Shown here in pieces: positions 2-16,914 of a DNA stretch of 32,000 nucleotides. This DNA is from Telmatocola sphagniphila. GTDB taxonomy: Bacteria > Planctomycetota > Planctomycetia > Gemmatales > Gemmataceae. Position 1 is the stretch's first letter, and each line of letters begins with the position of its first letter. The notes under the pieces are model-generated. The model saw only the letters and a program-made list of their open reading frames with translations. It was not told the origin of the DNA and did no database searches. The position numbers and the translations under genes are program-made. The stretch is taken from the NCBI RefSeq assembly GCF_018398935.1, contig NZ_CP074694.1:1890001-1922000 (forward strand), in the 5' to 3' direction.

Positions 2-688
2 CTGGCCGACATCAAGCAGAAGGCCGACCGCGACACGATCGTTTCGCGCTTCCGCGGCCTGCAGCAGGACCTAGATGCCCTCGGCATCCGGCTTCGCCTG
101 CTGGAATGGCTCTACCGCAGCGAGTGGACCGTCCCGGTCGATCCCGAACTGAGCGAAGTCTCCGGGGAAGACGCCGTCCAGGAAACGGCCAAGCTCTTCG
201 CCGGGGTGTTCGCCTCGCGCCGCCTGAATCTCAATGTGGTCAATCAGGGGGGCTGGCTGAGCGTCGATAAGGACACGCTGACCGCGGCCCTGATGGGCCT
301 GCTCAATTTCGCCTGCAAGGCCAGTAGCGGCGATCGCCTGGAAGTCAAAATTGAAAAACTGCCGCCGACGCCGGAACTCACCGAAGGCTGGATGTGCTTC
401 ACCCTCTCGGGCGAATGGCAGCCGACCGTCTGGAACCAGACGGCCAGCATCGACTCCCTGAGCAATGAAGCGCTGATTGCGGACGCGACTTTGGGTCTGG
501 CCGTGGCCAACCGGGTCGCCCGGCGCTTGCAAGGGGTCTGTCGGGCCGAGGAAAGTTCCGATTTCCGCCGCTGCATCAAGCTCTACGTGCCGACCCGACT
601 GCCCAGTCCGATCACGACGGTTTCCGAAAACGAAGTGGGCCCCCGCGAAGAACTCTGTCTGGGCTGGAAGCTCGCCAGCGTTGTCTAA
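2..688 (+). CDS. Histidine-kinase-like ATPase (HATPase_c) protein, C-terminal part; the 5' end lies upstream of the window
   Basis: Frame 2 is open from the window edge (LADIKQKADRDTIVSRFRGLQQDL...) to TAA at 686-688. Track ORF 206..688 is only its GTG-initiated tail. N-box-like LMGLLNFACKASSGD and G2-like DATLGLAVANRVARRL are present. The G1 (DxGxG) position reads TLSGEW, so it is degenerate. Confidence 0.7.
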   Translation: MADIKQKADRDTIVSRFRGLQQDLDALGIRLRLLEWLYRSEWTVPVDPELSEVSGEDAVQETAKLFAGVFASRRLNLNVVNQGGWLSVDKDTLTAALMGLLNFACKASSGDRLEVKIEKLPPTPELTEGWMCFTLSGEWQPTVWNQTASIDSLSNEALIADATLGLAVANRVARRLQGVCRAEESSDFRRCIKLYVPTRLPSPITTVSENEVGPREELCLGWKLASVV

Positions 689-731: not shown

Positions 732-1523
732 ATGAGTGCCGAGTTGAACGCCAGCCTCGATCAGCCGACCGAAGATGCCCTGCAGCTGGTTTGGAAAGAA
801 CAAGCCGATCTCAAAGCCGTCACGCTGTTGCGACGCTCGGGCATCACCGACGGAACGATCCATCGGACCATGTCGGTCGTCCACGGCACGCAGCCGTATA
901 AGCACAACCACTACCACGACGAGGAGTTCTTCCGCGCCGACCCCGCCAAGGGAACCTTGAGTAATCCCTACGGCCAGCGCATGATGCGGGTCTCCGAGGA
1001 TTTCGTGGTGGCCCTGCTGGGGGCTTTGGAAGACGAAGTCGGCCAGGGGGGCGCTCGCGAGATCATGTACAAGTGCGGCTTCCAGTGGGGCCTGCGCGAC
1101 ATGAAGCATTTTCTGCCGCGCATGCAGGCCGAGTTCGAAGCCGAACTGGACCGGCAGCGCATGGACTTCCTGGCGGAGACCTGGTGGTGGCCGTTGACCA
1201 TCACCGGCTGGGGCACCTGGCGCTACGACTTCCGGCAGCGCGATAAGGGCCTGCTCTTCATCGAGCTGTACGAATCGGCGGTCGCCCAGTCGGTCGGCGA
1301 TATCGGCTCGGTGATCTGCTACTTCTACGCCGGCCTGTTCGCTTCGACCTTCAGCGTCTTAAGCAAGCGGTCTCTCGGCTGCGTCGAGATGCAGTGCTAC
1401 GCCACCGGCGAAGACTACTGCAAGTTCGTAATTTCCGACTACAAGAAAGTCGATGCCGCGGCGTTCTGGCGGGGCGAAGGAGCCACCGCGAGCGACATCA
1501 TGAAACGCCTCCAAAACATGTAA
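732..1523 (+). CDS. V4R (4-vinyl-reductase-like) domain protein
   Basis: ATG at 732 is in frame with track ORF 477..1523, whose upstream extension overlaps the preceding CDS and is Arg/Pro-rich junk. It is preceded by GGAGAA. The C-terminal LGCVEMQCYATGEDYCKFVISDY resembles the V4R signature (E..C...G...C.F.I). The GxG-rich middle (YKCGFQWG, TITGWGTW) is typical of the family. Confidence 0.7.
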   Translation: MSAELNASLDQPTEDALQLVWKEQADLKAVTLLRRSGITDGTIHRTMSVVHGTQPYKHNHYHDEEFFRADPAKGTLSNPYGQRMMRVSEDFVVALLGALEDEVGQGGAREIMYKCGFQWGLRDMKHFLPRMQAEFEAELDRQRMDFLAETWWWPLTITGWGTWRYDFRQRDKGLLFIELYESAVAQSVGDIGSVICYFYAGLFASTFSVLSKRSLGCVEMQCYATGEDYCKFVISDYKKVDAAAFWRGEGATASDIMKRLQNM

Positions 1524-1537
1524 TTTCCGGAGAGACC

Positions 1538-2185
1538 ATGCTCGATACATCCCGTTCGCTGCGACTGAAGGGCAATTTTTTCGCTCGTCCGGACTGGTTC
1601 CGCACCGACGTGACCCGGGGCGTGACCCGCAATCCCCTCGGGGAACGGGTCTGCACGCTGACCAGCGACTTTCTGCTCGGCTTTCGCGATGCCATGATCT
1701 ACGAATGCGGCCCGGCCGCTTCGGCCGTTCTGAAATCGGCCGGCAAGCGCTGGGGCGGCCAGTTCGCCCACCGCCTCGATAAGGCGGTCAAGGAATTCTA
1801 CGGCACCCCCTGGCGGGAATTGCAGCGCGGCGTGCAGATCACCGTGCTGACCGAAGCCTTCGCCGCGCACGGCTGGGGCCGGTTGTCGGTCGATTGGGAA
1901 CGCTGGCCCGATTATCTGGGCGTGCGTCTGGAAAACTCGATCTATCCCGATCTGATCCTGCAGGCGGACAAGCCCTCGGACGCGCTGTTCGCCGGCTTTT
2001 TGAAATCGATTTTCGAATATCTGCTGGAAACGCAGCTGGAGTGCCTGCAGACCGATTGCCCCACCTGCGAAGCGACGGCGAGTGGTTTCGTTCTGGGTAC
2101 GCCGGCGGCGATCCAGGACGTGGAAGCGCGGTTTGCGAAAACGTTGGGACGGGAAGGGACGCTGCGCGAAGTGCTCGCGTCCTGA
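1538..2185 (+). CDS. Second, more divergent V4R-like protein
   Basis: ATG at 1538 lies 14 nt after the previous stop and is preceded by GGAGAGA; the track start 1394 overlaps the upstream gene. The layout parallels the first V4R protein (GERVCTLTSDFLLGF..., GWGRLSVDW..., C-terminal LECLQTDCPTCEATASGFVLG), but the terminal motif is degenerate. Confidence 0.6.
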   Translation: MLDTSRSLRLKGNFFARPDWFRTDVTRGVTRNPLGERVCTLTSDFLLGFRDAMIYECGPAASAVLKSAGKRWGGQFAHRLDKAVKEFYGTPWRELQRGVQITVLTEAFAAHGWGRLSVDWERWPDYLGVRLENSIYPDLILQADKPSDALFAGFLKSIFEYLLETQLECLQTDCPTCEATASGFVLGTPAAIQDVEARFAKTLGREGTLREVLAS

Positions 2186-3240: not shown

Positions 3241-3861
3241 ATGAGCTTACTGCACCGCGCCCGCACCGCGTCGGGCGATCTGCACCGCCGCATCGAAAAC
3301 ACGCCGCTGGCCCAGCAGCTGGCCCGCGGCACCGTCGAGCGCGACACCTACCTGCGCCTGCTCGAAGTCCTCCTGCCGATTCACACGGCGGTCGAAGCGC
3401 AACTCGCGCATCCCCCCTTGAACGTTTTGACCAATCCGAATCTGCCGCGGCGAAGCCTATTAATCGCCGACCGGGCCGCGCTGGCCGCGCCCGCCGAGCC
3501 TTTCGAATCGGAGCATCTGTCCGCCTGGCAGGAGGCCCTGCAGGAGGAGGAAGCGGTCTCCCCCTGGGTCTGGGCCGGCGCCCTCTACGTCCTCGAAGGC
3601 TCCCGGATGGGTTCGCGGATGCTGGCCAAAACCGTGGCGGCGGCGCTGCAACTCCCCCTGCAGCCCGGGCTCGGTCTAGACTACCACCTCGCGGGGTTAA
3701 GCGACGGCGGCCAAACCTGGCAGGAATTCAAAGCCTTTTTGGAAAACGCCCCAGTCACGGCGTCGGAGAGCGACAGCTTCGCCCGCGGCGTCGGACGGAC
3801 CTTTCAGGTGATGTTCGACGTCTACGAAGAGCTTTCGGGCGCCACCGCGGCACGATCTTGA
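3241..3861 (+). CDS. Heme oxygenase (biliverdin-producing, BphO/HO1 family)
   Basis: Proximal-His region TASGDLHRRIENTPL (compare T..sH...En). YLRLLEVLLPIHTAVEAQL matches the Y..lL...y..y..lE motif. ALYVLEGSRMGSRML matches the distal-helix YvlEGS.lGG motif. It starts 11 nt after the preceding stop. Confidence 0.8.
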   Translation: MSLLHRARTASGDLHRRIENTPLAQQLARGTVERDTYLRLLEVLLPIHTAVEAQLAHPPLNVLTNPNLPRRSLLIADRAALAAPAEPFESEHLSAWQEALQEEEAVSPWVWAGALYVLEGSRMGSRMLAKTVAAALQLPLQPGLGLDYHLAGLSDGGQTWQEFKAFLENAPVTASESDSFARGVGRTFQVMFDVYEELSGATAARS

Positions 3862-3887
3862 TTCCATGACGGGAAACGGAGAGCGGG

Positions 3888-5507
3888 ATGAAACGGCTGC
3901 ATTTGAAACCCCTCGGCGAAAACCTGCTGGTGGAAACCGGCGCGACTCTCCTGTCCACGCTGCTGAGCCGGCAGATGAACGTCAAAATGTCCTGCGGCGG
4001 CCGCGGCTTCTGTTCGACCTGCCGCGTCTCGATCAAACAGGGGATGGATCAGCTCTCCCCGATCGAGAATCGGGAACGCAAGACCCTCTCGCTGGTCGCC
4101 GGCGTCACCTCCGAATGCCGGCTGGCCTGCCAGTCGCGGGTCGAAGGCGAAGGGATCATCGTCGAAGTTCCCAAAGGGATGTACATCGAGCGGGCCGAGG
4201 ATCTCCTGAGCCTGCTCGGCCAGCGCGCTCCGGAAAATATCCTGCACCCGATCCATGGTTCGATTCTGATTCCCAAGGACAAGATCATCACCCGCAGCCT
4301 GCTCGAACAGTCGCGCACCCTCGAGAAGGAAGTGGAGCGGATGAAGAACCGGGCCGTCGGGGCGGGCGAATCGGACAGCCAGCTGAATTCCTCCTCGATC
4401 TCGAATTTCCGGTTTATGGCCACCGGCAGCGGCCTGGCGCCCAGCCAGGGGCTCGACTCCTTCACCTCGACGTCGATTCTGAATCTGACCACCCGGATGG
4501 ACTTTTCGAAGCACGCTTCGAAAACCGGGAATCCCTCGGCGCCGTCGTTCTCGATGCACTCGAGCGATCAGAAACTGCCGACGATCCATTCCGAAGAATC
4601 GACGCTGCCGCCCTACCTGACCCGCCCCGAACGCAAAGCCGTCGTCCTCGAGCCGGGCGCGACCGTGGGCAAGTTCCTGCTCCTCGAAGAGATCGGTAAA
4701 GGCGGCGTCGGCCTGGTCTATCGGGCCCTGCACACGAAATTGAAATCGATCGTGGCGATGAAGTTCCTGAAACCCAGTTCGCCCGGCGGCACCGGGGCGC
4801 TCCTGGAGCGCTTCGGCAACGAGGCCCGGCTCTTGGCCCAGCTCAATCACCCCAACGTGGTCCGCGTGCTGGACTTCGAAGACAACTCCGCCCTCCCCTA
4901 CGTGGTCATGGAATTCGTCGATGGCAGCAGCGCCTCGGAACTGCTCAAACAGCAGGGGCGGCTGCCGCTGGCCAAGGTCCTGAGCATCCTGTCGCAGGCG
5001 ACCCGCGGGCTGATGGCGGCCTTGCACCTGGGCATCATCCACCGCGACGTCAAGCCGGCCAACATCCTGGTCGACAAGCTGGGGATCGCCAAGCTGGTCG
5101 ATCTGGGCCTGGCCGTGCAGATGCAATCGGACGACGGCACGGAACTGGGCAAGGGCCGCGGCGCCGAAGGGACCGCCGGCTACATGTCGCCCGAGCAGCT
5201 GCAGGACGGTTCCTCGATCGACCACCGCTCGGACATCTACTCGCTGGGGGTCACCTTCTATCACCTCTTGACCGGTCGCCTGCCTTTCACCGGCAGCAAC
5301 CGCAACGAAGTCTTCTTCAAGCACATGACGGCGACGCCGACCGCCCCGCACGAGATTTGCCCGGATATGCCCGTGGAGGTCTCGCAGATCATTCTGAAGA
5401 TGATGGAGAAGCATCCCCTCGATCGGCCGCAAACCTACGAAGAGGTCCTGGCCTTGTGGGACACGGTGGCAGGAAATGCCAAGGAACTGGTGCGCAGCGC
5501 GAAGTGA
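3888..5507 (+). CDS. [2Fe-2S] ferredoxin domain fused to a Hanks-type Ser/Thr protein kinase
   Basis: N-terminus: C36-x5-C42-x2-C45 (SCGGRGFCSTCRV) plus C77/C81 (SECRLAC), a ferredoxin-like 2Fe-2S ligand pattern. A Ser-rich linker follows (~aa 150-250). C-terminal kinase motifs: GKGGVGLVYRA, VAMKFL, HRDVKPANILV, DLGLA, GTAGYMSPEQ. GGAGAG lies upstream of the ATG. Confidence 0.9.
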   Translation: MKRLHLKPLGENLLVETGATLLSTLLSRQMNVKMSCGGRGFCSTCRVSIKQGMDQLSPIENRERKTLSLVAGVTSECRLACQSRVEGEGIIVEVPKGMYIERAEDLLSLLGQRAPENILHPIHGSILIPKDKIITRSLLEQSRTLEKEVERMKNRAVGAGESDSQLNSSSISNFRFMATGSGLAPSQGLDSFTSTSILNLTTRMDFSKHASKTGNPSAPSFSMHSSDQKLPTIHSEESTLPPYLTRPERKAVVLEPGATVGKFLLLEEIGKGGVGLVYRALHTKLKSIVAMKFLKPSSPGGTGALLERFGNEARLLAQLNHPNVVRVLDFEDNSALPYVVMEFVDGSSASELLKQQGRLPLAKVLSILSQATRGLMAALHLGIIHRDVKPANILVDKLGIAKLVDLGLAVQMQSDDGTELGKGRGAEGTAGYMSPEQLQDGSSIDHRSDIYSLGVTFYHLLTGRLPFTGSNRNEVFFKHMTATPTAPHEICPDMPVEVSQIILKMMEKHPLDRPQTYEEVLALWDTVAGNAKELVRSAK

Positions 5508-5708
5508 GCGGTGGGCCGGGCGAGAATCGAAAGAAACCACGGGGGAAACGAGGCGTCGTCGCGAAACGAGGGGCACCGGCGGGAGAACAGCCGGTCGACG
5601 AGCTGAAGAGGTGAGATAGAAGAACGGAGTTAGGTCATTTCAAGCGATTTCTATAGCCCTTTCCTTACTGGGGAAGCCGTTCGAGTCGCCTTAAAGACAA
5701 AACCTGAT

Positions 5709-6884
5709 TCAAGATGTGGGACCGACGGCGCGGCCGGAGACGGAGAGGCGTTTTCCGATCAGCGCCCGTCGAATGCGCGGGGTATGGCGTTCGCAGAGAT
5801 ACCAGAAGGCCGCGCCGATCCCCAGCAACAGGCTCAAAAATCCCAGGTACTGCAGAACCGCCGGGAGATCGGGAAAACACTTCTGCGGCAGATAGAAGTG
5901 CGTGGCGATCAGAAGCACGACCGGGAAGTGAATGGTGTAAAGCGAGTAGGACAGGTCGGCGGCGGCGATGGCGATTTTCTCAAGTGCCGGTCCCAGAATC
6001 GGTATGCGCGGCCGCGGCCATTTGGCCAGGACCAGACAAAGTGTGGCGAAGGCCAGCCCGACGACCAGATCGCTCGAGACGCCCAGTCCTTCCTGCAGCC
6101 GCAGCGATTTGCTGTAGCCCAGGGACGCTCCAAAAAGCCCCAGCGTGACGAGGAGCGCAATCCAGCGGCGACGCGTCGAGAAGCGCGGCTGGATCCGGTA
6201 AACCAGAACGCCCAGTAACCAGATCAGATAGCCCAGCCAGATGCCCCGCGGCAACCCATAGGCTAACGCCGCGATCGCGCCCCCCGCGAGCAGGCGCCGC
6301 CCGAGGCCCGCCGGTTTCCCGGAAATTCCGAGCAGCAATGTGCCGAGCGGAAAGAGCACGTAGTACCAGAACTCGTTGGCCAGACTCCAGAGCGGGCTAT
6401 TGGTTCCGAAGGTCGGCACCCCGATCGTCTGGACGAAGCCGAGATTCCCCAGGAAGGTGACCAGACTCGTCGAGTAGGACCCGTCGGTTCGGGGTCCGGA
6501 GGTCCAGAGCGGGGCGTATTCACCCTGGGCCACCTCGGGATGCGCCGAGAGCGTGTACGAATCGATCAGGTAGGTCAGGACCAGCGCCGGGAGAAGCACC
6601 CCCCAGAGCCGGGTCAGCCGCGTGGTGCCATAGGCCGCCCAGGAGAAGCGGTCCCCCGCTTTGAGCACCGAGCCGCCGACGAACATGCCGCTGAGGACGA
6701 AGAAGACCATCACCGCTTCGTGGCCGAGCCCGGTGAGGCCGTAGAGCAATTTTTGGAAGAGCGTCGGGGCGGTCAATTCGGCGTAGTCGACCAGCGCCAC
6801 CGCCCGCAGGTGCCCGGCGCAGACCAGAATGGCACTGAGCCCCCGGACCAGATCCAGCCAGATATAGCGCTCGTCCTGTTTCAT
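5709..6884 (-). CDS. Membrane acyltransferase, family 3 (O-acyltransferase of polysaccharide)
   Basis: Multi-TM protein with the N-terminal MKQDERYIWLDLVRGLSAILVCAGHL signature of Acyl_transf_3. ATG at 6884 is preferred. The track start 6989 adds an Arg-rich 35 aa extension and remains possible. Confidence 0.75.
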   Translation of the reverse strand: MKQDERYIWLDLVRGLSAILVCAGHLRAVALVDYAELTAPTLFQKLLYGLTGLGHEAVMVFFVLSGMFVGGSVLKAGDRFSWAAYGTTRLTRLWGVLLPALVLTYLIDSYTLSAHPEVAQGEYAPLWTSGPRTDGSYSTSLVTFLGNLGFVQTIGVPTFGTNSPLWSLANEFWYYVLFPLGTLLLGISGKPAGLGRRLLAGGAIAALAYGLPRGIWLGYLIWLLGVLVYRIQPRFSTRRRWIALLVTLGLFGASLGYSKSLRLQEGLGVSSDLVVGLAFATLCLVLAKWPRPRIPILGPALEKIAIAAADLSYSLYTIHFPVVLLIATHFYLPQKCFPDLPAVLQYLGFLSLLLGIGAAFWYLCERHTPRIRRALIGKRLSVSGRAVGPTS

Positions 6885-7028
6885 GCTTGGGAAAAAGAGG
6901 CGAGCGAAAGAGGAACCCGCGAGGGACCCCGCGGCCCTTCGCCCGAAACGGCGAAAAAGCCGCCCAGCGAGAAGACGGGAACGCGGCATCCCGTCAGTGG
7001 GAGAAAGAGTTAGGAAAAAAATCGTCGA

Positions 7029-8003
7029 CTACTTGGCTTCGGCCTTCAGATCGGCTTCGACCATCATGCGGACCAGTCCCGGGAAGTCGACCTTTCGTTC
7101 CCAGCCCAGTTTTTTGCGGGCCAGGCTCGGATCGCCGATCAACAGATCGACCTCGGCGGGGCGCAGATACTTCGGGTCGACTTCGACGTACTTCTGCCAA
7201 TCCAGATTCACGTGATCGAATGCCAGCTCGACGAATTCCTGAACGCTGTGGGTCTCCCCCGTCGCGATCACAAAATCGGTCGGCACGTCCTGCTGCAGCA
7301 TCAGCCACATCGCCTGCACGTAATCGCCGGCAAAGCCCCAGTCTCGCTTGGCCTGCAGATTGCCCAGGGAGAGTTTTTGCTGCTTGCCGAGCTTGATGCG
7401 GGCGACCGCATTGGAAATTTTGCGGGTGACGAATTCGAGGCCGCGACGGGGGCTTTCGTGGTTAAACAGAATCCCGGAAACCGCGAACATGTTGAACGAT
7501 TCGCGATAATTGACGGTGATCCAGTGCCCGAAGACCTTGGAGGCCCCGTACGGACTGCGCGGATAAAAGGGCGTCTCCTCGCGCTGCGGAATCTCCTGTA
7601 CTTTGCCGAACATTTCGCTCGACGAGGCCTGGTAGAAGCGGGGCGACTGCCGCGAGTAGCGGATCGCTTCGAGGATGCGGTTGACCCCGACGGCGGTCAT
7701 TTCTGCGGTGGCGAGCGGCATATCCCAGCTGGCGGTGACGAAGGACTGCGCGGCCAGGTTATAGACTTCCGAGGGCTGAATCGATTCGATGAGGTTGGCC
7801 ATCGACGATTGATCGAGCAGATCGGACGGGTGCACGGTGAGGCGATCGAGAATATGTTCGATGCGGCTGAGATTGGGCGTACTGGAGCGGCGGATCATGC
7901 CATGGACCTGATAGCCCTTCTCCAGCAGAAATTCGGCCAGGTAGGAACCGTCCTGGCCGGTGAGGCCCGTGATCAAAGCGATTTTCTTCTGCGATACTGC
8001 CAT
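7029..8003 (-). CDS. gmd: GDP-mannose 4,6-dehydratase
   Basis: [36 protein letters not shown]..., [15 protein letters not shown] and [12 protein letters not shown] are diagnostic GMD motifs. ATG at 8003 is preferred over the TTG at 8015 given by the track. Confidence 0.9.
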
Positions 8004-8214
8004 GGGATCTCTCAATCTCCGGAAATCGTACCAGGTCTTCCAAACGGCGCTTCGAGGGACTTTTCAGAACTTCGCGGGGCGGTTTGCCGAGTCTCCTTCG
8101 GATTTTACAAAACCCCGCGGAGAAGTCTTCCGACGCGGCAGAGATTTCGGGGGAAGGGCCAACCGAAAGGAAGTGCGAGGGGAGTTTCGCAAAGCGAAGC
8201 CCGGGGAAGATGCC

Positions 8215-8775
8215 TTAAGCGCTCGGCCAGCCGTCGCGTTTTTTCAGCGGGCGGGCCGGATTGCCGACGCAGACCATCCCGGCGGGAAGAGAGGAGAAGA
8301 CCGAGGCGCGGGCGCCGACGACGCAGCCGCGACCGATCGTCACGTTGGGACCCACGAAGGTATCGGCGGCCAGCCAGACATCGTCCTCGACGGTGATCGG
8401 CGGCCGCAGAAGCGGCATATGGGGTTGCGTAAAATCGTGGCTGCCGGCACACAGATGAGCCAGCTGACTGATCGTCACCCGTGCGCCGATTGTGATCGGC
8501 CCCAGGCAGTACAGAATCGCCCGATCGCCGACCGAGGAATTGGCTCCGAGGGTTAAATTCCAGGGGATTTCGATTGTGACGGTCGGTCGAATCCGAGCTG
8601 TGCGATCAATCTGGGCCCCAAAGAGTCGCAACAGAGTGTTCCGCCAGCGATAGCACCCGCGCGGGCTGCACCCAAACAGCGTCGATTGCACGAGGCCCCA
8701 GAGGGCGCGGGCGATCTTTTCCCGGAAGGTCCAGGGGCTGATATGGCGACGGTCGGCCGGATCGGGGGGGGACAT
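8215..8775 (-). CDS. Hexapeptide-repeat O-acetyltransferase (WcaF/colanic-acid-acetyltransferase-like)
   Basis: C-terminal left-handed beta-helix repeats: ITVEDDVWLAADTFVGPNVTIGRGCVVGARASVFSSLPAGMVCVGNPARPL. The N-terminal region is like WcaF. Its ATG abuts the stop of the upstream GT2 gene (8775/8776). Confidence 0.8.
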   Translation of the reverse strand: MSPPDPADRRHISPWTFREKIARALWGLVQSTLFGCSPRGCYRWRNTLLRLFGAQIDRTARIRPTVTIEIPWNLTLGANSSVGDRAILYCLGPITIGARVTISQLAHLCAGSHDFTQPHMPLLRPPITVEDDVWLAADTFVGPNVTIGRGCVVGARASVFSSLPAGMVCVGNPARPLKKRDGWPSA

Positions 8776-9717
8776 CTATTTCGCAGTCTTTTCTTGCAGC
8801 CGCAATTCGTGGAATTTAGCCAGCGAGATAAAATCGTACCAGGCCATCAGCCGGCACATCACGAAGCCGGCGTAGCCGTCCCGGAAGCCGCCTTTGAGGA
8901 GATAGCCGTAGAGAAATCGCAAGAGCGGCCGAAAGGGCATTTTTCGGGTTTTGGCTTTCAGCCAGCGCTTGCGGGCGATCGGCCCGCCGAAGAGCGAAGG
9001 CTTCACGCCCCCCTCGTCTTTGGCGAGCATCGCGTGCGCTTCCCAGGTCGAGTAGCGATTGTGTTTTTCGACCCAGACGCTCAGATTGGGATAGGCGTAG
9101 TGCAGAAAATCGTGCTTCAGATAACCCGCCTCCCCGGTTTTGAGCACGATGTGCTCGTGGACTTCATTGTCGCCGGAGCCGGTCTGGCCGAGATTACCGA
9201 TCCGCTCGTACCGCCCGAGGGCATGCTTGAACAGTCGCACGTTATAGGAGGGGTAATAGCCGCAGTGCTTGATCCACTGTCCGAGGAACATGAAACGGCG
9301 GTTGAGCCAGTAGCCATCGCCGCAGCCGTTGCCGGGGGGATATTTTCCGGTGACTACCTGTTCGATTTCCTGCGCCAGTTCCGGCGTCATGTACTCATCG
9401 GCATCGAGGATCAGCACCCATTCGTTGCGCCAGGAGACCTGTTCTAAGGCCCAATTTTTTTTCTTGGGCCAGCCTTCGGCGGAATAGTGAAACTGGTAGA
9501 CCTCGGCGCCGAGGGCTTCCGAGAGAGCCACCGTCTGATCGGTCGACTGGGAATCGACCACGACGATCTGGTTGGCCCACTGGAGCCGGCGTAGACACTC
9601 CTCGATGTTCGACTGTTCATTTTTGACCGGAATCAACACGCTGACCGGAACGTTCTTAGGCGGCCAGGGGATCGTCGAATTCGCTTCAGGACTAGACATC
9701 GATCCAAACCATTTCAA
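8776..9717 (-). CDS. Glycosyltransferase family 2
   Basis: VSVLIPVKNEQSNIEECLRRL...VVVDSQSTDQT...ILDADE is the classic GT-A/GT2 N-terminal domain. Track start 9717 is TTG; an ATG at 9699 (MSSPE...) is an equally plausible start. Confidence 0.8.
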   Translation of the reverse strand: MKWFGSMSSPEANSTIPWPPKNVPVSVLIPVKNEQSNIEECLRRLQWANQIVVVDSQSTDQTVALSEALGAEVYQFHYSAEGWPKKKNWALEQVSWRNEWVLILDADEYMTPELAQEIEQVVTGKYPPGNGCGDGYWLNRRFMFLGQWIKHCGYYPSYNVRLFKHALGRYERIGNLGQTGSGDNEVHEHIVLKTGEAGYLKHDFLHYAYPNLSVWVEKHNRYSTWEAHAMLAKDEGGVKPSLFGGPIARKRWLKAKTRKMPFRPLLRFLYGYLLKGGFRDGYAGFVMCRLMAWYDFISLAKFHELRLQEKTAK

Positions 9718-9782
9718 CTATTGGGGGCGGTAACACTGGGAGAAAGAGGCCTCGAACCGGAGAACGTTGGGGGTGCGGCCCC

Positions 9783-10904
9783 TCAGCGGCGGGCCTGCGC
9801 GACGACCGAGCCATACAAGTCTTCGAATTGACCGATGACCCGGTCCCAGGAATAGCGCGAGGTGACTAGCTCCCGTCCGGCCGGTCCCATGGTCTGGCGG
9901 GCCTGGGGGTTCGAAAGAATTTTATCGAGGGCCCCGGCGATCTGATCCGCATCGAGATCGGTGACATACCCGGCTCGAGAGGATTCCACTTCGGGGAAAT
10001 GGCACGCTTTGGTGATCACGACCGGAATTTGGGCGGCAAGGGCTTCCAGAATCGCCACGCTGAAACCTTCCTGGCGGCTGGGGAGAACAAACACCGCCGC
10101 GCCCAAGAGGGCCGTCTGCTTCTGTTCGCCATACAGGGGACCGGTGAGAACGACCCGCTCCGTGAGGTTCCGAGACGCGATCAGTTTTTCGAAATCCGCC
10201 CGCGCGCCGTCGTCCGGACCCGCGACCACCAGCTTCAGAGACGGATGCGCGGAGGCGATCTTCGCAAAAGCTTCGACTAGATAATCGAGGCCTTTTTTGA
10301 AGTGCAGCCGACTTAAAAAGAGCAAGAACGGGGCCACGTCGCCCAGGGCGTAGCGCTGCCGGAAATTCGCAAGGGCCAAATCGCTCGGAGCCGCGGCAAC
10401 CTCGATCCCGTTGGGGATAATGGCCGCTGGAGCCGTAATTCGGAGAGTTTTCGTCAGATCGGCCTCGTCCGAGTTGAGAAAATGGATGGCCCCGGCCTGA
10501 TCCAGAAAACGCTTGACCACCAGTTGCAGAAACAGCTTCTTTTTCAGGCGCTTCTGCGACAAACTCCAGGGATCGAGCATGCCGTGCGGTGAGAGAACAT
10601 AGGGTTTCTGGAGTTGGCGGGCCGCCCGAATCACCTGGAGTAACGGACGATCCCAGACCCCGTGCAGATGCACCAGATCGAAAGACTGAATCCGCGTGCT
10701 CTGGAAACCCGGGTTCCAGAAAAAGTCCCACCAGCGGCTGGGGGAAAGCTTCTGTGCTGTTTCCAGGTCCGTAGTGGGCACGATCTCGGCGGCCATCGCC
10801 GCCTGCAGTCCCCGCCGCTGTTGTTGGGCCACCAGCGACCGAACCGCGGAAGCCGTTCCGCCCGTGGACGGATCCAGAGAATGCACGACGTGCAGGACTT
10901 TCAT
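9783..10904 (-). CDS. Glycosyltransferase family 4 (GT-B, Glycos_transf_1)
   Basis: MKVLHVVHSLDPSTGGTASAV... N-terminus and C-terminal ...FVLPSRQEGFSVAILEALAAQIPVVIT (E-x7-E-type motif). The ATG is preceded by GGGGAGG. Confidence 0.8.
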   Translation of the reverse strand: MKVLHVVHSLDPSTGGTASAVRSLVAQQQRRGLQAAMAAEIVPTTDLETAQKLSPSRWWDFFWNPGFQSTRIQSFDLVHLHGVWDRPLLQVIRAARQLQKPYVLSPHGMLDPWSLSQKRLKKKLFLQLVVKRFLDQAGAIHFLNSDEADLTKTLRITAPAAIIPNGIEVAAAPSDLALANFRQRYALGDVAPFLLFLSRLHFKKGLDYLVEAFAKIASAHPSLKLVVAGPDDGARADFEKLIASRNLTERVVLTGPLYGEQKQTALLGAAVFVLPSRQEGFSVAILEALAAQIPVVITKACHFPEVESSRAGYVTDLDADQIAGALDKILSNPQARQTMGPAGRELVTSRYSWDRVIGQFEDLYGSVVAQARR

Positions 10905-10940
10905 CGCCGCCTCCCCTGGCTCTGGCCGGGACAGGGTGGC

Positions 10941-12302
10941 TTACGCCGAGGCATGCGGATTCCGGGGAGCATTCAGCTGCGGATTCACAAACTCGAAAAA
11001 CAGAACGCCGAGATAGGCGAACAAAAAGGGAAAGAGCACCAGACTGGTGATGTCGCGGCCCATATTGAAGGTCAGCCCCAGCCCGATCAAAAACAGGGCC
11101 AGCCGGTGCTGCAGATAGCGCTGACTCCAGAGCTTGGCGAGGATCTGCACCCAAATTCCCATCAGGAGCGCCGCGGCGGCCGGCCCGAGGATATCCCCAA
11201 AATTGCAGACCCCCTGTCCGATCATGCCGCGCGAGATGGTCGCAAACACGCCGTGGTCTACACCGGACCCGCCGAAGCCGCGCATGATCGCGTAGTTGAT
11301 CCCGATCATTGGCTTATCTTTCCAGATACCCCGAGGCACGAACGCGGCCAGCTCGGCCAGATAGGACTCCCCCCATTCCTCGGTCATGACCCGGGTCGTC
11401 AGGAACGATCGGATATAGCAGAGTTCCTCGAACATATTGACGTCGGTGCGGTTCTCCGGTCCCGCCTGCACCTGCGGCTCGCTATTGAGAGCCTTGACGA
11501 TCGAGGCGGAACCCTTTTCGCGATTGCTTTGAATGAACGCAAACCAGCCGGAAATCACAATCAGCAGCGTGGTCAGAATGACCGCTTTTTTCGCGAAGGC
11601 GTCCCGGGAGATAAAGATGTAAGAGAAGACGCCCGGGAGGATCACCGCCAAAATCCCGCTGCGAGCTCTCTGAAAGAGATAGGCCTCGATTGCAATCAGA
11701 AATAAGATCAAAGACAGGTAACGCAAATTGCTGGAATAGAAGGTGACGAACTGAATCCCCAGCATGCCGACGGCGGCCACGTGACAGTAGCCGCAGATGG
11801 AGATCAGAAAGTCGAATTTGGTACCGACCGCGCCGCGCGACCAGATGAATTGCGGATCGCTCGAAAGCGGTGGAAAGAAAATCGAGAAGAAATCCCCGTC
11901 GAGCATCCATAAGCCGATCAGCGTCAGGAACGCCCAGACCGCGAAGACGCTTGTGAAGACTTTTTTCTCAAAGTCGAGGCGCTGCTGTTCATCGACGAAA
12001 AAAAGGTTCGCCTCCGGATTCCTCTCGTACTCCGGCAGGAAAGCCAGATAGCCCCGAAAGACCAGGAGGAAGGTCAGCACTTGCAGCAGGGAGCCCTCGA
12101 CGAGGTCGAAGCCGAACTTGAGATTGTAGTACAGGATCCCGTTTTGCGTGATCTCGTAGAAATACCAAAAGCCGATGGTAAAGTAGACGATCAGCGCCGG
12201 CCGGCTCCAGGTCCGGTCCAATTTTCGGACGGCCTCCACGACCAGCAGCACCAGAACAAAGAGGTTCAGCAGAAAGAAGGCATTGAACTCGAACATAGTC
12301 AC
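10941..12302 (-). CDS. Polytopic membrane protein, probable oligosaccharide repeat-unit polymerase (Wzy-like)
   Basis: About 10 or more hydrophobic segments with a large loop (NSEPQVQAGPENRTDVNMFEEL...VPRGIWKDKP). It sits among GT genes in a locus that also has a Wzx-like flippase. Wzy families are too divergent to assign from motifs, so the call is by context. GTG at 12302 or ATG at 12296. Confidence 0.55.
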   Translation of the reverse strand: MTMFEFNAFFLLNLFVLVLLVVEAVRKLDRTWSRPALIVYFTIGFWYFYEITQNGILYYNLKFGFDLVEGSLLQVLTFLLVFRGYLAFLPEYERNPEANLFFVDEQQRLDFEKKVFTSVFAVWAFLTLIGLWMLDGDFFSIFFPPLSSDPQFIWSRGAVGTKFDFLISICGYCHVAAVGMLGIQFVTFYSSNLRYLSLILFLIAIEAYLFQRARSGILAVILPGVFSYIFISRDAFAKKAVILTTLLIVISGWFAFIQSNREKGSASIVKALNSEPQVQAGPENRTDVNMFEELCYIRSFLTTRVMTEEWGESYLAELAAFVPRGIWKDKPMIGINYAIMRGFGGSGVDHGVFATISRGMIGQGVCNFGDILGPAAAALLMGIWVQILAKLWSQRYLQHRLALFLIGLGLTFNMGRDITSLVLFPFLFAYLGVLFFEFVNPQLNAPRNPHASA

Positions 12303-12317
12303 CTGAGGTCGGTCGGG

Positions 12318-13427
12318 TTAACGCACCCAGCGAAGGTACTGATCGATCATCCGGGCCGGCGTGAACTGTTCCACATAATCGAAGGCCGTAGGGACGGTGT
12401 GCGCGGACGACTCGCGATTCTGAATTTTATCGAGAATCGCTTCCGCTAGAAGCTCCGGCCGCTGGGGAGGCACCAATTGGCCCAAGCGACCGCCCTGCAG
12501 CAGTTCCCGGCAGGCCGGCACATCGGTGGCCACCACTGGCAGTTTTGCCGCCATCGCTTCCAAAAGAACGCTGCCCAAGCCTTCGTTGATCGTTGTAGAG
12601 AATACGAACAGATCGGCTAAGCCCAGCAATTCGGGCACATCCGAACGCGTGCCCAGAAAGGTGACCTGTTCGCGAATTCCCAGCCGATCGGCGAGTTGCT
12701 CCAAGTCGCCGCGCAGACTCCCCTCCCCGACCAGCCCCAATCGGAAATTCGGGCAGCGCGAAACAATCGAGGGTATCGCTTTGAGGAGCGTCTCGTGGTC
12801 TTTGTGTTTCTCCAGCGTCGCGACCATGATCGCGGTGAAGAACTTCCCGTCTTTTACGATCTCTTGCCGCGCCCGGGTCGCCCGGGCGGAAATTTCCCGG
12901 GCCCGGGCACAGTTGTAGACGGTCTGGAACAGGCCCCGGGAGACGCCTCGAATCGAACGATTGGCGTCGCGAACATAATCCGAGCAGCAGATCACTTTGG
13001 CGCGAAGCAGCGCCAGGGGCCAATAGACCGAGCAGGAAATCAGATCATTTTTGCCGCCGAGGCGCGGCGGATTCCCGGAATGCACCAGGAGTTTTTTGCA
13101 GCCCGCCAGACGGGCTCCTTCGCAGACCCAGCTCGCCATCCCGGTGACCCAGCAAAGCACGATATTGGGCCGGGTGTCGCGCACCATCCGATAGGAAGCC
13201 TGGACGATGCGCGGGAATTGCGAAAAGCCCGGCTGGAGCAGATCGTGCTCCCGGTAGGCTCGAGAACCCTTTTGTAACGGCTCTTTCAAGTCGCCCGGCT
13301 GCGAGTTTAAAACCAGAACCCCCTGCCAGAGATCGGGACGCGCCGCCAACCAGTCGAGCACCAGACGCGGCGTGCCTTCGGCGCGAGGGGTCGCCAGGAC
13401 ATGCAGAATACGAGGTTCAAAAGCCAA
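12318..13427 (-). CDS. Glycosyltransferase family 4
   Basis: ILHVLATPRAEGTP... N-terminus. C-terminal LGLVGEGSLRGDLEQLADRLG...FVFSTTINEGLGSVLLEAMAAKLPVVATDV. The start codon at 13427 is TTG and there is no upstream ATG in frame. Confidence 0.8.
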   Translation of the reverse strand: MAFEPRILHVLATPRAEGTPRLVLDWLAARPDLWQGVLVLNSQPGDLKEPLQKGSRAYREHDLLQPGFSQFPRIVQASYRMVRDTRPNIVLCWVTGMASWVCEGARLAGCKKLLVHSGNPPRLGGKNDLISCSVYWPLALLRAKVICCSDYVRDANRSIRGVSRGLFQTVYNCARAREISARATRARQEIVKDGKFFTAIMVATLEKHKDHETLLKAIPSIVSRCPNFRLGLVGEGSLRGDLEQLADRLGIREQVTFLGTRSDVPELLGLADLFVFSTTINEGLGSVLLEAMAAKLPVVATDVPACRELLQGGRLGQLVPPQRPELLAEAILDKIQNRESSAHTVPTAFDYVEQFTPARMIDQYLRWVR

Positions 13428-13445
13428 GAAGAAACTTTCCTGGAA

Positions 13446-14579
13446 CTAACGCGTCCAGAGTTCTTTGAACTCGCGGACGCAGCGGGCCCAGCGGACCGAC
13501 TCGGACCGGTGCTGAGCCGCCGTTTGCTTGGAGTGCTGCTTCGCTTCCGACTGCAGATAAGCTTCGAAACGATCGGCGATCTGAAGAGGCCCCTCGGTGA
13601 GGGCGAAGCGGAATCCGGCCTCTTCCGGGAGGGTATCGGCGGGGCCTTCGATGGCGTAACCGGCCACCGGAATTCCGACGCGCAGAAATTCGAGGGTGGA
13701 AATTCCCAAGGCTTCCCGAGCCGAAAACAGACAGCCGACGTCGCAGGATTCAAGAAATCGCAGAAACAAATCGGCTTGGGTCCGCTTATCGATAAAGCCG
13801 ACAAAGCGGACGCCGTCGCGCTGGGTTAATTCCGCGGGAGCCTCGCCGGCCGCCTGCACCTGGACCTTCCAGCCGCGGGCGGCCAATCGATCGCGTACTT
13901 CGATGACGATCGGCAGCCCTTTGCGCTTCCAATCTTTGCCGACAAATCCGAGAACAAACGGCCGATCGACCCCCGCCCGGCCCGACGGAGCTTTGGGAAC
14001 CCAGTTTTCGGGGAGATCGAGGTTCGCTCCGGGCAGCACCGTGTGCACTTTCGTGGGATCAACGCCACATTCCCGGACGAGCGATTCCGCCGTCCAAGTC
14101 CCCATGGCGATCACACGCTCCGCCAGGCGATAATTCTCTTGCTCGAGCTGGAGAACCTGTTCCCGAATATCCTTGGGAAGATTCATCTCCAAGCCCCTCC
14201 CGGAAGTCAGAGCGGCCAGAGTCGCATCGATGTAGTAACTGATTTTTCCGCCGGCCCGTTGGACCGTGCGCGCCCGGGGAAAGGTCTGATTGAAACTGAT
14301 AATCTCCTGCGCAAGGATCGCCGGCGGAATTTGCTGCTCCACGGCGTCGAGGAATTTTTCCGAGTACTGATAGCCGCCGCGGGGATGACCGCGCAACTTA
14401 CGGAAGAAATTCCATACCAGCCGCGAGCGCTGAAAGATTTCGAGATCGATTTGGCCGGGAATATTGGCGAAATTCTGTTTCTGGCACTCCGAATAAAAAT
14501 GATACGGGATACCGCTCCAGCAGTTGGGATCGGCCGTATTCCCCAGGGCAAAGATCGCTCTCCCGGTCTTCGAATTCAT
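13446..14579 (-). CDS. Glycosyltransferase (GT-B fold, family 4-like)
   Basis: C-terminal half FVLGFVGKDWKRKGLPIVIEV...FVGFIDKR...CLFSAREALGISTLEFLRVGIPVAG is GT1/GT4-like. The N-terminal half is divergent. Its ATG overlaps the upstream stop as ATGA (14576-14579). Confidence 0.7.
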   Translation of the reverse strand: MNSKTGRAIFALGNTADPNCWSGIPYHFYSECQKQNFANIPGQIDLEIFQRSRLVWNFFRKLRGHPRGGYQYSEKFLDAVEQQIPPAILAQEIISFNQTFPRARTVQRAGGKISYYIDATLAALTSGRGLEMNLPKDIREQVLQLEQENYRLAERVIAMGTWTAESLVRECGVDPTKVHTVLPGANLDLPENWVPKAPSGRAGVDRPFVLGFVGKDWKRKGLPIVIEVRDRLAARGWKVQVQAAGEAPAELTQRDGVRFVGFIDKRTQADLFLRFLESCDVGCLFSAREALGISTLEFLRVGIPVAGYAIEGPADTLPEEAGFRFALTEGPLQIADRFEAYLQSEAKQHSKQTAAQHRSESVRWARCVREFKELWTR

Positions 14580-15781
14580 GGCAGGCGCTCGACCAGAGCG
14601 GTGCGGAAAGCTTGCCAGGGATGTTTCCGGGCGATTTTCCAGGCCTGCATTCCCAACTGGGGCTGATCGCGCAGTTGCTGCGACAGTTCGGTCAATTTTT
14701 GAGCGAGAGCGCCGGGATCACCCGCCGGGCAGGTGAAAAAGCCGTCGGCCTCGGTGCCCAAATCGGGAACGCAAGTGTTTTCGGTTCCCAGGACGGCCCG
14801 GGCTTTCGCCGCCGCTTCCAGAAAAACCGCGCCAAATCCTTCGATCAACGAAGGCACTACCAACAGATGCGCTTCCTGAAAGAGTCGAACGAGTTCGGCC
14901 GCGCTGACGCCCGGATAGAAGCGGATTCCGGAGCTAGAATTCAGCAGATCCTTCATCGCCGGGTCGAGCACGCGCGAGACGATCCTCAGTTCCGAACCGG
15001 CTGGGAGCCGGGCGTTCGACCAGGCCCGGAGCAAATGGTGCAGCCCTTTGCGCTGGATGCCGCTGCCCAGAAACAGGGCTCGAAAATTTTGGCTCGGCGA
15101 CCCAGCGGGAGGTTCCGCCGGGGCATCGACGCCGTAGGGAACGACCTGGCACTTTTCGGCCGACGCCCCGGCATGCAGCAAGGTACGTCGCGTAAAACGA
15201 CTGGCGCAGAAGATCTGATCGGCGAGTGTCCAGGCCCAGGAAGCCCCCGCTTTCTGGTCGAGTGCATCCCCTTCCCCGTCGACTTTTTGCCAGGCGGTCG
15301 CCGGGGGAAATTGTCGCGTGTCCTCGTCCAAAATTTGGCGTTCCAGATCGGGATGCACGTGAAAGTGAAAGAGGATTTTGGCCGGGTTGTGCTTCGTATA
15401 ATTCCGCTGAAAAGCCTCCCAGGCATAGGGCTCGTAGAGAAGCAGATTCGACTGGGTCCGCTCGGCGATTTTTCCGGCCCGTCTCGATAAAGCGCGGGAG
15501 ATGTAGTTCCAATATTTCGGCGGATGGATTTTCAGGCGCCGGCCCAGATGCTCGACCAGTTCCAGACGCAGACTGCTGGACACTTTCGAGTTGGGAACGC
15601 CCGGGCACTGCCGAGCGCGGAGTCCTCGCTGCACTTGGCTTGAAAATTGCCCCAGCTTTTGAATCAGTCCTTTTGAATAAAAGGTCGTGACCAGGGCCTC
15701 CAAGCGATCCGCCTCTTCCAGCGCCCAGGGAATCTGGTAGCCGTCGCGCCGGCCCGCAAATGCCGTGACGTAGCGGCTCAT
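14576..15781 (-). CDS. Glycosyltransferase (GT-B fold, family 4-like)
   Basis: FRALFLGSGIQRKGLHHLLRAW...LLVVPSLIEGFGAVFLEAAAKARAVLGT is a GT1/GT4-type C-terminal domain. ATGA overlap with the upstream gene at 15778-15781. Confidence 0.7.
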   Translation of the reverse strand: MSRYVTAFAGRRDGYQIPWALEEADRLEALVTTFYSKGLIQKLGQFSSQVQRGLRARQCPGVPNSKVSSSLRLELVEHLGRRLKIHPPKYWNYISRALSRRAGKIAERTQSNLLLYEPYAWEAFQRNYTKHNPAKILFHFHVHPDLERQILDEDTRQFPPATAWQKVDGEGDALDQKAGASWAWTLADQIFCASRFTRRTLLHAGASAEKCQVVPYGVDAPAEPPAGSPSQNFRALFLGSGIQRKGLHHLLRAWSNARLPAGSELRIVSRVLDPAMKDLLNSSSGIRFYPGVSAAELVRLFQEAHLLVVPSLIEGFGAVFLEAAAKARAVLGTENTCVPDLGTEADGFFTCPAGDPGALAQKLTELSQQLRDQPQLGMQAWKIARKHPWQAFRTALVERLP

Positions 15782-16911
15782 CGGGGAGATCTTCCCTGCA
15801 CGCGGGCGTTGGTTTCCCGCGAGTCGGAAAAGAGCTGGTCCAGATAGCGGGAGGCATAGACTTCCGGAGCGAACGAGGCTTGCGCCCGTTGCTGGCCACG
15901 CTGGGCCAACTCTTCGCGAGCCACCCGATCGAGCATGTAGCGTTCGATCTGGGTTGAGAGAGCTTCGGGATTACCCGGCGGCACCAGTTCGACAGTTTCC
16001 TTCGAGCCGGCCAGTTCTGCAATCGGTCCGATCTCGGTGGCGATGCACGGCAGTCCTAACATCATCGCCTCGGCCAAGGCATTGCCCAGCCCCTCGCGGG
16101 CCGTGGTGGCGAACACGAAAAGGTCCCAGGTGGCCATCCGGGCAAACACATCGTCGATCATGCCCAGAAAATCGACCTGGGATTCGATCTTTAGTTCCCG
16201 GGCCCGGGCGATCAAAGCTTCCTTCTGATCGCCGTCGCCCGCGAGTTGCAGGCGCCACTCGGGATACCGGGGAGCGAGCCGAGCAAAAGCCCGTAGCAGC
16301 GTCGCCTGATCCTTGATCGCATCCAGGCGGGAGACCATTCCGAAGATTTTGGTATCGGCCCGCGTCCGATCGTAGTGCCAGGCAATTGCGGGCCGTTTAA
16401 TACCGTTCCACACCACCGTCCGACGATAGGGTCGCAGACAGCGCTTGGCATCGAACGAATCGGCGACGTACTGGGAACAGCAGATATAGACCGGATCAAT
16501 CGCGGTCCGGTAAATTTTCTGAAGCAGCCAGAACTTCCAATCGGTGAGCGCCGTCATGGGGTAGGCCGGGTTGCCGCCGTGCACTCCGACCTTAATCGTA
16601 TCCGAACTCAGGGCGTGCAATAATTGGGGCAGCTTCACCAGGCCATGCCAGAGCATAGCGGCCTCCGGAGCCGTCTCCTGGACGAACCGTTTCAGTTGAG
16701 CCATCCGACGGGAGGAAGTTTTATAGAGCTCGGGAGCCCAGATCAGCACTTGCGCTCCGGCTTCCCGCCAGAGGGCACTCATCGGACCGTCGGGCCCGAG
16801 TACCAGCACATGATGCTCGACCGACTTCCCGTATTGGATGAGCATCTCGCAATTGCGCTCACAACCGCCGCGCTCCGCTCCAAACAGAATGTGCAGTAAT
16901 TTTCGGGCCAT
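15778..16911 (-). CDS. Glycosyltransferase family 4
   Basis: KLLHILFGAERGGCERN..., KIFGMVSRLDAIKDQATLLRAF...LQLAGDGDQKE...FVFATTAREGLGNALAEAMMLGLPCIATEIG. Confidence 0.8.
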   Translation of the reverse strand: MARKLLHILFGAERGGCERNCEMLIQYGKSVEHHVLVLGPDGPMSALWREAGAQVLIWAPELYKTSSRRMAQLKRFVQETAPEAAMLWHGLVKLPQLLHALSSDTIKVGVHGGNPAYPMTALTDWKFWLLQKIYRTAIDPVYICCSQYVADSFDAKRCLRPYRRTVVWNGIKRPAIAWHYDRTRADTKIFGMVSRLDAIKDQATLLRAFARLAPRYPEWRLQLAGDGDQKEALIARARELKIESQVDFLGMIDDVFARMATWDLFVFATTAREGLGNALAEAMMLGLPCIATEIGPIAELAGSKETVELVPPGNPEALSTQIERYMLDRVAREELAQRGQQRAQASFAPEVYASRYLDQLFSDSRETNARVQGRSPR

Positions 16912-16914
16912 GCT

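Follow-up and report, generated by a model that had tools for sequence, protein, structure and literature searches.

Gene clusters that encode V4R proteins, an iron-sulfur (Fe-S) protein and BBAG globins are the proposed ancestors of the phycobiliprotein system, and in cyanobacteria they have been linked to photosystem assembly. The BBAG/pre-PcyA clusters described by Rockwell, Martin and Lagarias in 2023 encode a heme oxygenase (HO), an Fe-S protein, two V4R proteins and one or two BBAGs; they have been related to slr0144-slr0149 of Synechocystis, and Planctomycetes are among the hosts of the pre-1 clusters (PMC10151467). In a Synechocystis spkG mutant the cluster ferredoxin Fd5 (Slr0148) is no longer phosphorylated, and the slr0144-slr0152 operon encodes several phosphoproteins (PMC11863333, PMC10651672). 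Here we describe a gene of the planctomycete Telmatocola sphagniphila (Gemmataceae, Planctomycetota; genome of 6.59 Mb) whose product joins a predicted Fd5-type [2Fe-2S] ferredoxin module to a Hanks-type Ser/Thr kinase through a low-complexity linker. It lies in a stretch of 32,000 nucleotides of contig NZ_CP074694.1, hereafter the window, as the final gene of a plus-strand cluster of the order V4R-V4R-BBAG-BBAG-HO-fusion (Table 1). The fusion belongs to a recurrent and so far undescribed family of the order Gemmatales, in which HO is nearly always the gene immediately upstream. We give about even odds to a reading in which the Fe-S module serves the kinase as an input or partner domain and, through its redox or cluster state, couples phosphorylation to the redox or iron conditions linked to HO.

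The fusion gene is convergent with the acyltransferase gene that follows it on the minus strand (5709-6989). Its ATG stands 26 nt behind the TGA stop codon of HO (3859-3861), as had been counted in an earlier note made from the DNA letters alone. Pfam places Fer2 (PF00111) at residues 8-85 of the product (32.6 bits, cut-off 21) and Pkinase (PF00069) at residues 266-516 (167.9 bits, E 3.7e-49, cut-off 31.7; profile positions 4-254 of 263 covered), so that the union of the two domains read in that note is real. Since an identical protein has been deposited (QVL33763.1 in GenBank, WP_213498741.1) and about 50 full-length homologues exist, the product is not that of a chance open reading frame (ORF). 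The deposited entry is annotated 'protein kinase'; the protein is public but functionally undescribed. A long minus-strand ORF that overlaps the gene (3822-5576) is taken to be a shadow ORF of GC-rich DNA, since the homology of the product on the plus strand is strong, and a promoter and terminator scan of the window gave counts at shuffle level.

Table 1. Features of the fusion gene, its cluster and the remainder of the window.
Feature	Position	Strand	Evidence or remark
C-terminal part of a PAS/HATPase-like (histidine-kinase-like) protein	2..688	+	22-30% identity; gene cut by the left edge of the window
V4R protein A, 263 residues from ATG 732	732..1523	+	PF02830 V4R, 55.9 bits
V4R protein B, 215 residues from ATG 1538	1538..2185	+	V4R 18.3 bits, weak, below the Pfam cut-off
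BBAG-type globin 1, phycobiliprotein-like, 156 residues	2219..2689	+	PF00502 Phycobilisome, 21.7 bits (cut-off 22.2)
BBAG-type globin 2, 173 residues	2708..3229	+	PF00502, 22.5 bits (cut-off 22.2)
Heme oxygenase, 206 residues	3241..3861	+	PF01126, 65.4 bits, full length
GGAGAG, Shine-Dalgarno-like (ribosome-binding-like) site	3878..3883	+	read from the sequence, 4 nt before the fusion ATG
Fusion gene (predicted Fd5-type [2Fe-2S] module, linker, Hanks Ser/Thr kinase)	3888..5507	+	539 residues, ATG start
Ferredoxin core, residues 1-97, predicted ligand Cys 36, 42, 45, 81	3888..4178	+	profile, AF2, Foldseek, alignment
Conserved C-terminal extension of the Fe-S module, residues 98-157	4179..4358	+	conserved in fused and stand-alone relatives of ~160 residues
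Ser/Thr/Pro-rich low-complexity linker, residues 158-256	4359..4655	+	29% Ser+Thr
Linker motif F-x-[AS]-[ST]-[GSR], here F176-M-A-T179-G180	4413..4427	+	family alignment
Hanks-type kinase domain, residues 257-526	4656..5465	+	Pkinase, 167.9 bits
acyltransferase_3	5709-6989	-	polysaccharide block
Polysacc_synt flippase	19237-20775	-	polysaccharide block
NAD-dependent epimerase/dehydratase	20932-21927	-	polysaccharide block
DDE_3 transposase ORF	29952-30548		
acyltransferase_3 gene	30631-31767	-	

The Fe-S module differs in size and type from what the earlier note had in view, namely a domain of about 95 residues of the plant kind that serves HO. The protein contains six cysteines, at positions 36, 42, 45, 77, 81 and 491. 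In an alignment of 69 homologous modules, about 30 of them fused, C36, C42, C45 and C81 were invariant, whereas position 77, which the note had included in its cysteine pattern, is Ser in more than 90% of the modules and is no ligand. In the comparison with E. coli Fdx the four invariant cysteines fall where its ligand Cys lie, and their spacing, CX5CX2CX35C, matches the ISC/adrenodoxin type (CX5CX2CX35-37C). A plant-type (PetF-like) ferredoxin has CX4CX2CX29C and is closest to other plant-type ferredoxins, neither of which was observed: in a profile search of PDB sequences the best match was the E. coli ISC ferredoxin 1i7h (E 1.3e-14), followed by FdxB, putidaredoxin and adrenodoxin, with all matches confined to profile positions 10-97. 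A plant-type ferredoxin (1wri) appeared among the PDB matches only at rank 48. The NCBIfam model TIGR02007 (fdx_isc) gave 55.5 bits against an equivalog cut-off of 132.1, so that the module is related to this family and not a member of it. With the 69-sequence alignment, AlphaFold 2 (AF2) modelled the module at a mean pLDDT of 80.6 (38 with 10 sequences), with values above 90 over most of residues 1-100 and of 55-84 over the extension. Foldseek searches with this predicted model as the query returned 1i7h (TM 0.80, target-normalised), 3ah7, adrenodoxin and FDX2, with a probability of 1.00 for ISC/adrenodoxin relatives and TM values, likewise target-normalised, of up to 0.87. By sequence and by model, the module is thus a bacterial ISC/adrenodoxin-type [2Fe-2S] ferredoxin and not of the plant type that is the usual donor for cyanobacterial and plant HOs.

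The homology extends well beyond this core. Stand-alone proteins of about 160 residues cover 95-99% of the first 157 residues, and the Fe-S module therefore comprises about 157 residues, namely the core (~1-97) and an extension of about 60. The extension follows the consensus MY..DL..L.G.RA..NILHP..G..L..GK.ITR, with M98, L109, G111, H120, P121, K132 and R136 invariant in the 69 sequences, and it had no match in Pfam or among PDB sequences. Cyanobacterial (2Fe-2S)-binding proteins are 43-47% identical to the module over 85-96% of its length; a profile of the module retrieved 1757 proteins, and the top 120 were all cyanobacterial proteins of this kind and of about 160 residues. One of them sits in a locus (L004) of the order V4R-x-BBAG-V4R-Fer2-BBAG-TPR-Pkinase, which is the slr0144-slr0152 layout. 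The module can therefore be assigned to the Fd5 (Slr0148)-type 'cluster Fe-S protein' family of BBAG/V4R clusters, an assignment based on named cyanobacterial orthologues and on cluster architecture. Consistent with the conserved ligands and the predicted fold, the module should bind a [2Fe-2S] cluster, as has been reported for the recombinant cyanobacterial homologue Fdx5 (PMC7363133).

The second half of the protein bears the marks of a complete Hanks kinase, in agreement with the earlier note, all of whose motifs were recovered: GKGGVG at 270-275, VAMK at 289-292, HRDVKPAN at 385-392 and GTAGYMSPE at 428-436, with DLG at 405-407 in place of DFG and D405 kept. K292, E312, H385-R-D387, K389, N392, D405 and G407 were invariant in 16 aligned fusions, and the kinase accordingly looks active. 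Between the two domains lies the Ser-rich, low-complexity linker of that note, at residues 158-256, in which Ser and Thr make up nearly twice their share in the whole protein (15%) and whose length varies across the family from about 50 to about 185 residues. A short motif with an invariant Ser/Thr, F-x-[AS]-[ST]-[GSR], recurs in it: 38 of the 58 family members have it at residues 166-176, against an expectation of 2.2 for linkers that had been shuffled. It occurs, too, in a second fusion protein of T. sphagniphila (FLATG) and in a variant that carries a phosphatase domain (FAATG), both described below, and it is a candidate phospho-acceptor or docking site.

The fusion had been taken for a one-off, which it is not. 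An exhaustive HMMER search with the module among 1.84 billion representatives returned, as most of its best matches, proteins of 484-637 residues with the module at residues 1-155, followed by a low-complexity linker and a kinase; at least 15 fusion clusters at 50% identity were among the top matches. A profile built from 16 full-length fusions found about 50 clusters (90% identity) that carry both PF00111 and PF00069. The named sources are all Gemmatales (Telmatocola, Zavarzinella, Gemmata, Thermogemmata, Fimbriiglobus and Gemmataceae metagenome-assembled genomes, or MAGs), and T. sphagniphila itself encodes a second paralogue outside the window, QVL33322.1 (P0309), with 506 residues, 56% identity and the same Fer2-linker-kinase order. 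That the fusion was unique to one protein had been suggested by a word-indexed search with the module, which gave only 10 stand-alone ferredoxins, and was overturned by the exhaustive search. Among genome contigs, a scan yielded only two full-length fusions (L008 and L009), the remaining matches being kinase-only; a scan of metagenome contigs with the fusion alignment relied on kinase motifs only and returned generic kinases. The homologues are annotated only 'protein kinase' or 'ferredoxin/Bud32'. The Fer2-kinase architecture goes unmentioned in the accessible parts of a 2024 survey of Planctomycetota kinase architectures (PMC11032199), as it does in those of the main text and supplement of PMC10151467 and of a 2026 follow-up BBAG paper.

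Several family members depart from the common architecture. In the metagenomic protein P0138 (637 residues), the Fd5-type module is joined to a PP2C phosphatase, with no kinase; P0131 and P0154 combine the module with a kinase of degenerate catalytic motifs and are probably pseudokinases; and P0151 carries WD40 repeats and has lost one ligand Cys. The existence of the PP2C and pseudokinase variants leads us to favour a regulatory over a purely electron-carrying role for the Fe-S module. No genuine split version of the fusion was found. A 'split ancestor' with separate, adjacent Fer2 and Pkinase genes had seemed to be present at locus L007, and it was rejected: because a tblastn search with the fusion P0300 ran through frames 3, 1 and 3, the gene at 642-2216 of this metagenome contig is a fusion broken by two frameshifts. 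The short 'kinase-only' proteins P0340, P0346 and P0356, which pair tightly with fusions in the kinase tree, are probably fragments of the same frameshift type.

We then turned to the genomic neighborhood of the family, which could be read upstream of the fusion in 11 loci. HO was the gene immediately upstream in 10 of them, in two cluster arrangements. Eight loci (the window, L008, L009, L089, L170, L171, L172 and L174) show the order V4R-V4R-BBAG-BBAG-HO-fusion, preceded in five cases (L008, L089, L171, L172 and L174) by genes in the order Pkinase, PAS/histidine-kinase-like, stand-alone Fer2, while L007 and L175 show HO-fusion-Fer2-V4R-x-BBAG(-BBAG)-V4R. As HO precedes the fusion in both arrangements, the HO-fusion pair stays together while the remaining cluster rearranges; the gap within the pair is as short as 5 nt in L171. 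The association with HO drawn in the earlier note therefore withstood the finding that the fusion is common, and the HO neighbor was rightly named, although the wider V4R-V4R-BBAG-BBAG-HO cluster and its Fd5/SpkG counterpart had been overlooked.

These data suggest how such a fusion might work. The earlier note had offered two mechanisms, in which the module either donates electrons to the neighboring HO or reports its redox state to the kinase. According to the reading that we favour, the redox state or cluster occupancy of the Fe-S module would depend on the same pool of reductant, O2 and iron that HO draws on and changes, and this state would in turn gate or target the kinase. The kinase would phosphorylate itself, in the linker and possibly at T179, and/or other proteins of the cluster, so that heme-to-biliverdin turnover would be linked to Ser/Thr phosphorylation. 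The protein would then be the counterpart, in one polypeptide, of the dependence of Fd5 phosphorylation on SpkG that genetics has revealed in Synechocystis. The reading builds on what was observed of the domain order, of the family and its fold class, of the catalytic and ligand residues, which are intact, and of the conserved adjacency to HO; cluster binding, redox gating and the substrates are its predicted parts.

Several observations weigh against it. All fusion loci come from one order, Gemmatales, and the conserved adjacency to HO may partly reflect shared descent, with perhaps only two independent arrangements. In the exceptional eleventh locus, L088 (1-11602; Zavarzinella MAG, GCA_041399155.1), HO and BBAG genes are absent within 10 kb, and the genes upstream of the fusion are iscR-iscS-iscU-iscA-hscB-hscA-iscX. 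The clusters of the window and of L170 have no Fer2 besides the fused module, which may still have to carry electrons there. In a neighbour-joining tree of the Fe-S proteins (100 bootstraps, as for all trees), the fused modules grouped weakly, with a bootstrap of 48 and a weak backbone. Orthology of the fused kinase to SpkG was ruled out, as the identity of 28-30% to cyanobacterial SpkG-like kinases is generic for Hanks kinases and the two stand far apart in the kinase tree; the SpkG precedent is for this reason only an analogy. Finally, the kinase activity of SpkG lacks an in vitro demonstration (PMC11863333).

The same trees resolved other relationships more firmly. The fused, Gemmatales stand-alone and cyanobacterial modules split from ferredoxins of 103-110 residues with a bootstrap of 94, and the cyanobacterial Fd5-type proteins formed a separate clade (97). 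The stand-alone Fer2 proteins of the Gemmatales clusters (L008, L089, L171 and L172) were also a distinct clade (100); this paralogue could be a plain electron carrier. The PP2C variant P0138 fell inside the fused group as sister to a kinase fusion, with a bootstrap of 92. Given that the kinases are not orthologous, the trees imply that kinases were recruited to the cluster of this Fe-S protein independently in two phyla, a point that adds to the weight of the functional association instead of reducing it. The fused kinases belong to a Gemmatales kinase radiation, a position that also suits a quite different account, in which the module is an adaptor that docks the kinase to a V4R/BBAG/HO complex, its cluster has no signalling role, and the fusion is a product of the lineage-specific expansion of multidomain kinases in Gemmataceae. 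Gemmataceae possess about 100-140 Ser/Thr kinases, with many accessory domains (PMC11032199), and the WD40 variant P0151 does without one ligand Cys. However, the four ligand cysteines are invariant in 69 of 69 aligned modules, which points to selection on cluster binding, and the pairing with HO is conserved, so that we regard a mere adaptor as very unlikely.

A more serious contender is that the module mainly delivers electrons to HO, and to FDBR where present, as a tethered donor, and that the kinase, instead of being under the control of the ferredoxin, regulates it in cis by phosphorylation, as has been proposed for SpkG and Fd5. HO depends on an external reductant, the HO-fusion pair is conserved with short gaps, and in two loci there is no other cluster Fer2 to serve it. 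Fused modules have kept all ligand cysteines and the conserved core, an FDBR (PF05996) is encoded in L175, and Fd5 is a SpkG-dependent phosphoprotein (PMC11863333). On the other hand, fusions to a PP2C phosphatase or a pseudokinase are hard to explain for a mere carrier, most clusters possess the stand-alone Fer2 paralogue, and the module is of the ISC/adrenodoxin type, not of the plant type that serves cyanobacterial HO. Moreover, the Fe-S protein persists in cyanobacterial clusters, which have neither HO nor FDBR (PMC10151467), and recombinant Fd5 (Fdx5) exchanged no electrons with HoxEFU, the one partner tried (PMC7363133). We consider a tethered donor unlikely on the whole, though the least so of the alternatives to a redox- or cluster-state input.

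The Zavarzinella locus raises yet another possibility, as its isc operon is without the usual fdx gene and the fusion follows directly; in this lineage the fusion may be connected with Fe-S biogenesis. The module might thus be a sensor of iron or Fe-S status, its holo or apo state reporting iron or cluster supply, with HO in the role of an iron-releasing enzyme and the kinase signalling iron status, not bilin or redox status. The closest solved and curated relatives of the module are indeed ISC-system ferredoxins (1i7h and TIGR02007), and HO liberates iron from heme. Yet this ISC context was seen in only 1 of 11 loci, and the other 10 lie in BBAG/V4R clusters, sometimes with a bacteriophytochrome or FDBR, which argues for bilin metabolism; the fdx_isc score is also far under the equivalog cut-off. 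An iron sensor accordingly seems improbable to us, somewhat more so than a tethered donor.

The remaining genes of the cluster have syntenic counterparts in related loci. V4R-A, whose start was picked from the homology boundary, is the best-conserved cluster protein, with 59-71% identity to the syntenic genes of L008, L089, L170, L171 and L172, compared with 34-40% for HO; V4R-B is 44-51% identical to the second V4R gene of the Gemmatales clusters. In L089, L171 and L172, though not in the window, the two V4R genes are separated by a small ORF of 68-74 residues. The two BBAG assignments are at the PF00502 threshold and are backed by synteny, with identities to syntenic homologues of 33-42% for globin 1 and 39-55% for globin 2. 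The HO of the window is identical to QVL33762.1, 'biliverdin-producing heme oxygenase'. At the left edge, the truncated histidine-kinase-like product had no Pfam match of its own and matches the C-termini of PAS/HAMP/HATPase proteins of 553-589 residues that occupy the same position in L008, L089, L171 and L172. FDBR (PF05996) was absent among the scanned ORFs of the window and was likewise not found in L008, L089, L170, L171, L172 and L174. The rearranged Gemmataceae cluster of L175 (11486-16705) contains, besides its FDBR, two CbiA/ParA-like ATPases and, after the second V4R gene, an extra kinase of 627 residues in a position that recalls cyanobacterial SpkG. In two other loci a bacteriophytochrome (PAS_2-GAF-PHY and many PAS domains; 1277 and 1694 residues) adjoins the cluster (L089, 12086-15919; L172, 1-2847), and biliverdin made by HO may serve both there.

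Beyond the cluster, the window is occupied by genes of other kinds. A long minus-strand block for polysaccharide biosynthesis (5709-21927), which includes several group-1 glycosyltransferases, converges with the end of the fusion gene. It is followed on the plus strand (23463-29327) by four co-directional, overlapping genes for a metallo-beta-lactamase-fold protein, an ATP-dependent DNA ligase, an Lhr-type helicase (DEAD, WH_Lhr, DEAD_assoc) and a calcineurin-like phosphoesterase, which look like a DNA-repair gene cluster. From 29000 to 32000 the GC content falls from about 0.60 to 0.42-0.51, and this end of the window is probably a mobile or foreign segment.

We advance only tentatively, as less probable than the favoured reading itself, the broader claim that no earlier family of Hanks kinases has been recognised with a bona fide [2Fe-2S] ferredoxin as its input, and that this one, which has a PP2C phosphatase sibling, forms an obligate functional pair with HO, in which heme-to-biliverdin turnover, or the O2, reductant or iron status that it reflects, is read out directly as Ser/Thr phosphorylation of V4R and BBAG proteins. 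In that case the tie of the cluster Fe-S protein to Ser/Thr phosphorylation would be an ancient one, recruited independently in Gemmatales and Cyanobacteria, and the role of slr0144-slr0152-type clusters, the presumed source of the phycobiliproteins, would be explained. The covalent fusion is independent genomic evidence that Ser/Thr phosphorylation and the cluster ferredoxin work together; its conservation across Gemmatales beside HO lends weight to the Fd5/SpkG genetics of Synechocystis, which are indirect, and connects the system with HO. As T. sphagniphila is cultured, the hypothesis is directly testable.

Among known proteins, the ferredoxin core is most like E. coli Fdx (1i7h), adrenodoxin and putidaredoxin, with which it shares the Cys spacing and the predicted fold; putidaredoxin-like proteins have served as the outgroup for cluster Fe-S proteins (PMC10151467). 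These ferredoxins are nevertheless without the extension of about 60 residues and without a kinase fusion, and the window holds no isc operon around the fusion gene. The general plan of a Cys-ligated iron domain N-terminal to a Hanks kinase, in a soluble kinase, is found in mycobacterial PknG, whose autophosphorylation sites lie in its flexible N-terminal region and whose metal domain has been implicated in kinase regulation (PMC8546545, PMC4401782). In PknG, however, a rubredoxin-type Fe(Cys)4 site is packed on the kinase lobe and a TPR domain is present, whereas the fusion has a full [2Fe-2S] domain on a disordered linker of about 100 residues, and Pfam finds Fer2 in it and neither rubredoxin nor TPR. 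The two metal domains are unrelated in sequence and the genomic contexts differ, so PknG is an analogue only, though its rubredoxin is the main precedent among the few metal-centre input domains of bacterial Hanks kinases, to which a [2Fe-2S] ferredoxin would be added.

In gene content, the window matches the BBAG/pre-PcyA clusters, with HO, an Fe-S protein, two V4R proteins and BBAGs. It differs from them in that the FDBR to be expected from PMC10151467 is missing among its scanned ORFs, whereas the related L175 has one, and in that the Fe-S protein is fused to a kinase. A further close counterpart is the Fd5/SpkG system, which shares the Fe-S family (about 160 residues, with an ISC/adrenodoxin core and a conserved extension) and the cluster partners, two V4R proteins and BBAG globins, and whose cluster likewise encodes a Hanks kinase, on which Fd5 phosphorylation depends. 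Fd5 and SpkG are nonetheless products of separate genes, whereas ferredoxin and kinase form one polypeptide in T. sphagniphila; SpkG has a long C-terminal region, which the non-orthologous fused kinase lacks; the Synechocystis cluster has a TPR (Slr0151-like) gene and the window cluster has none; and cyanobacterial clusters are without HO, which in T. sphagniphila is directly adjacent. The hosts differ as well, one being a cyanobacterium and the other a non-photosynthetic planctomycete. By analogy with the Synechocystis system, and although the kinases are not orthologous, the fusion acts as a Rosetta-stone-like link that joins this Fe-S protein to Ser/Thr signalling.

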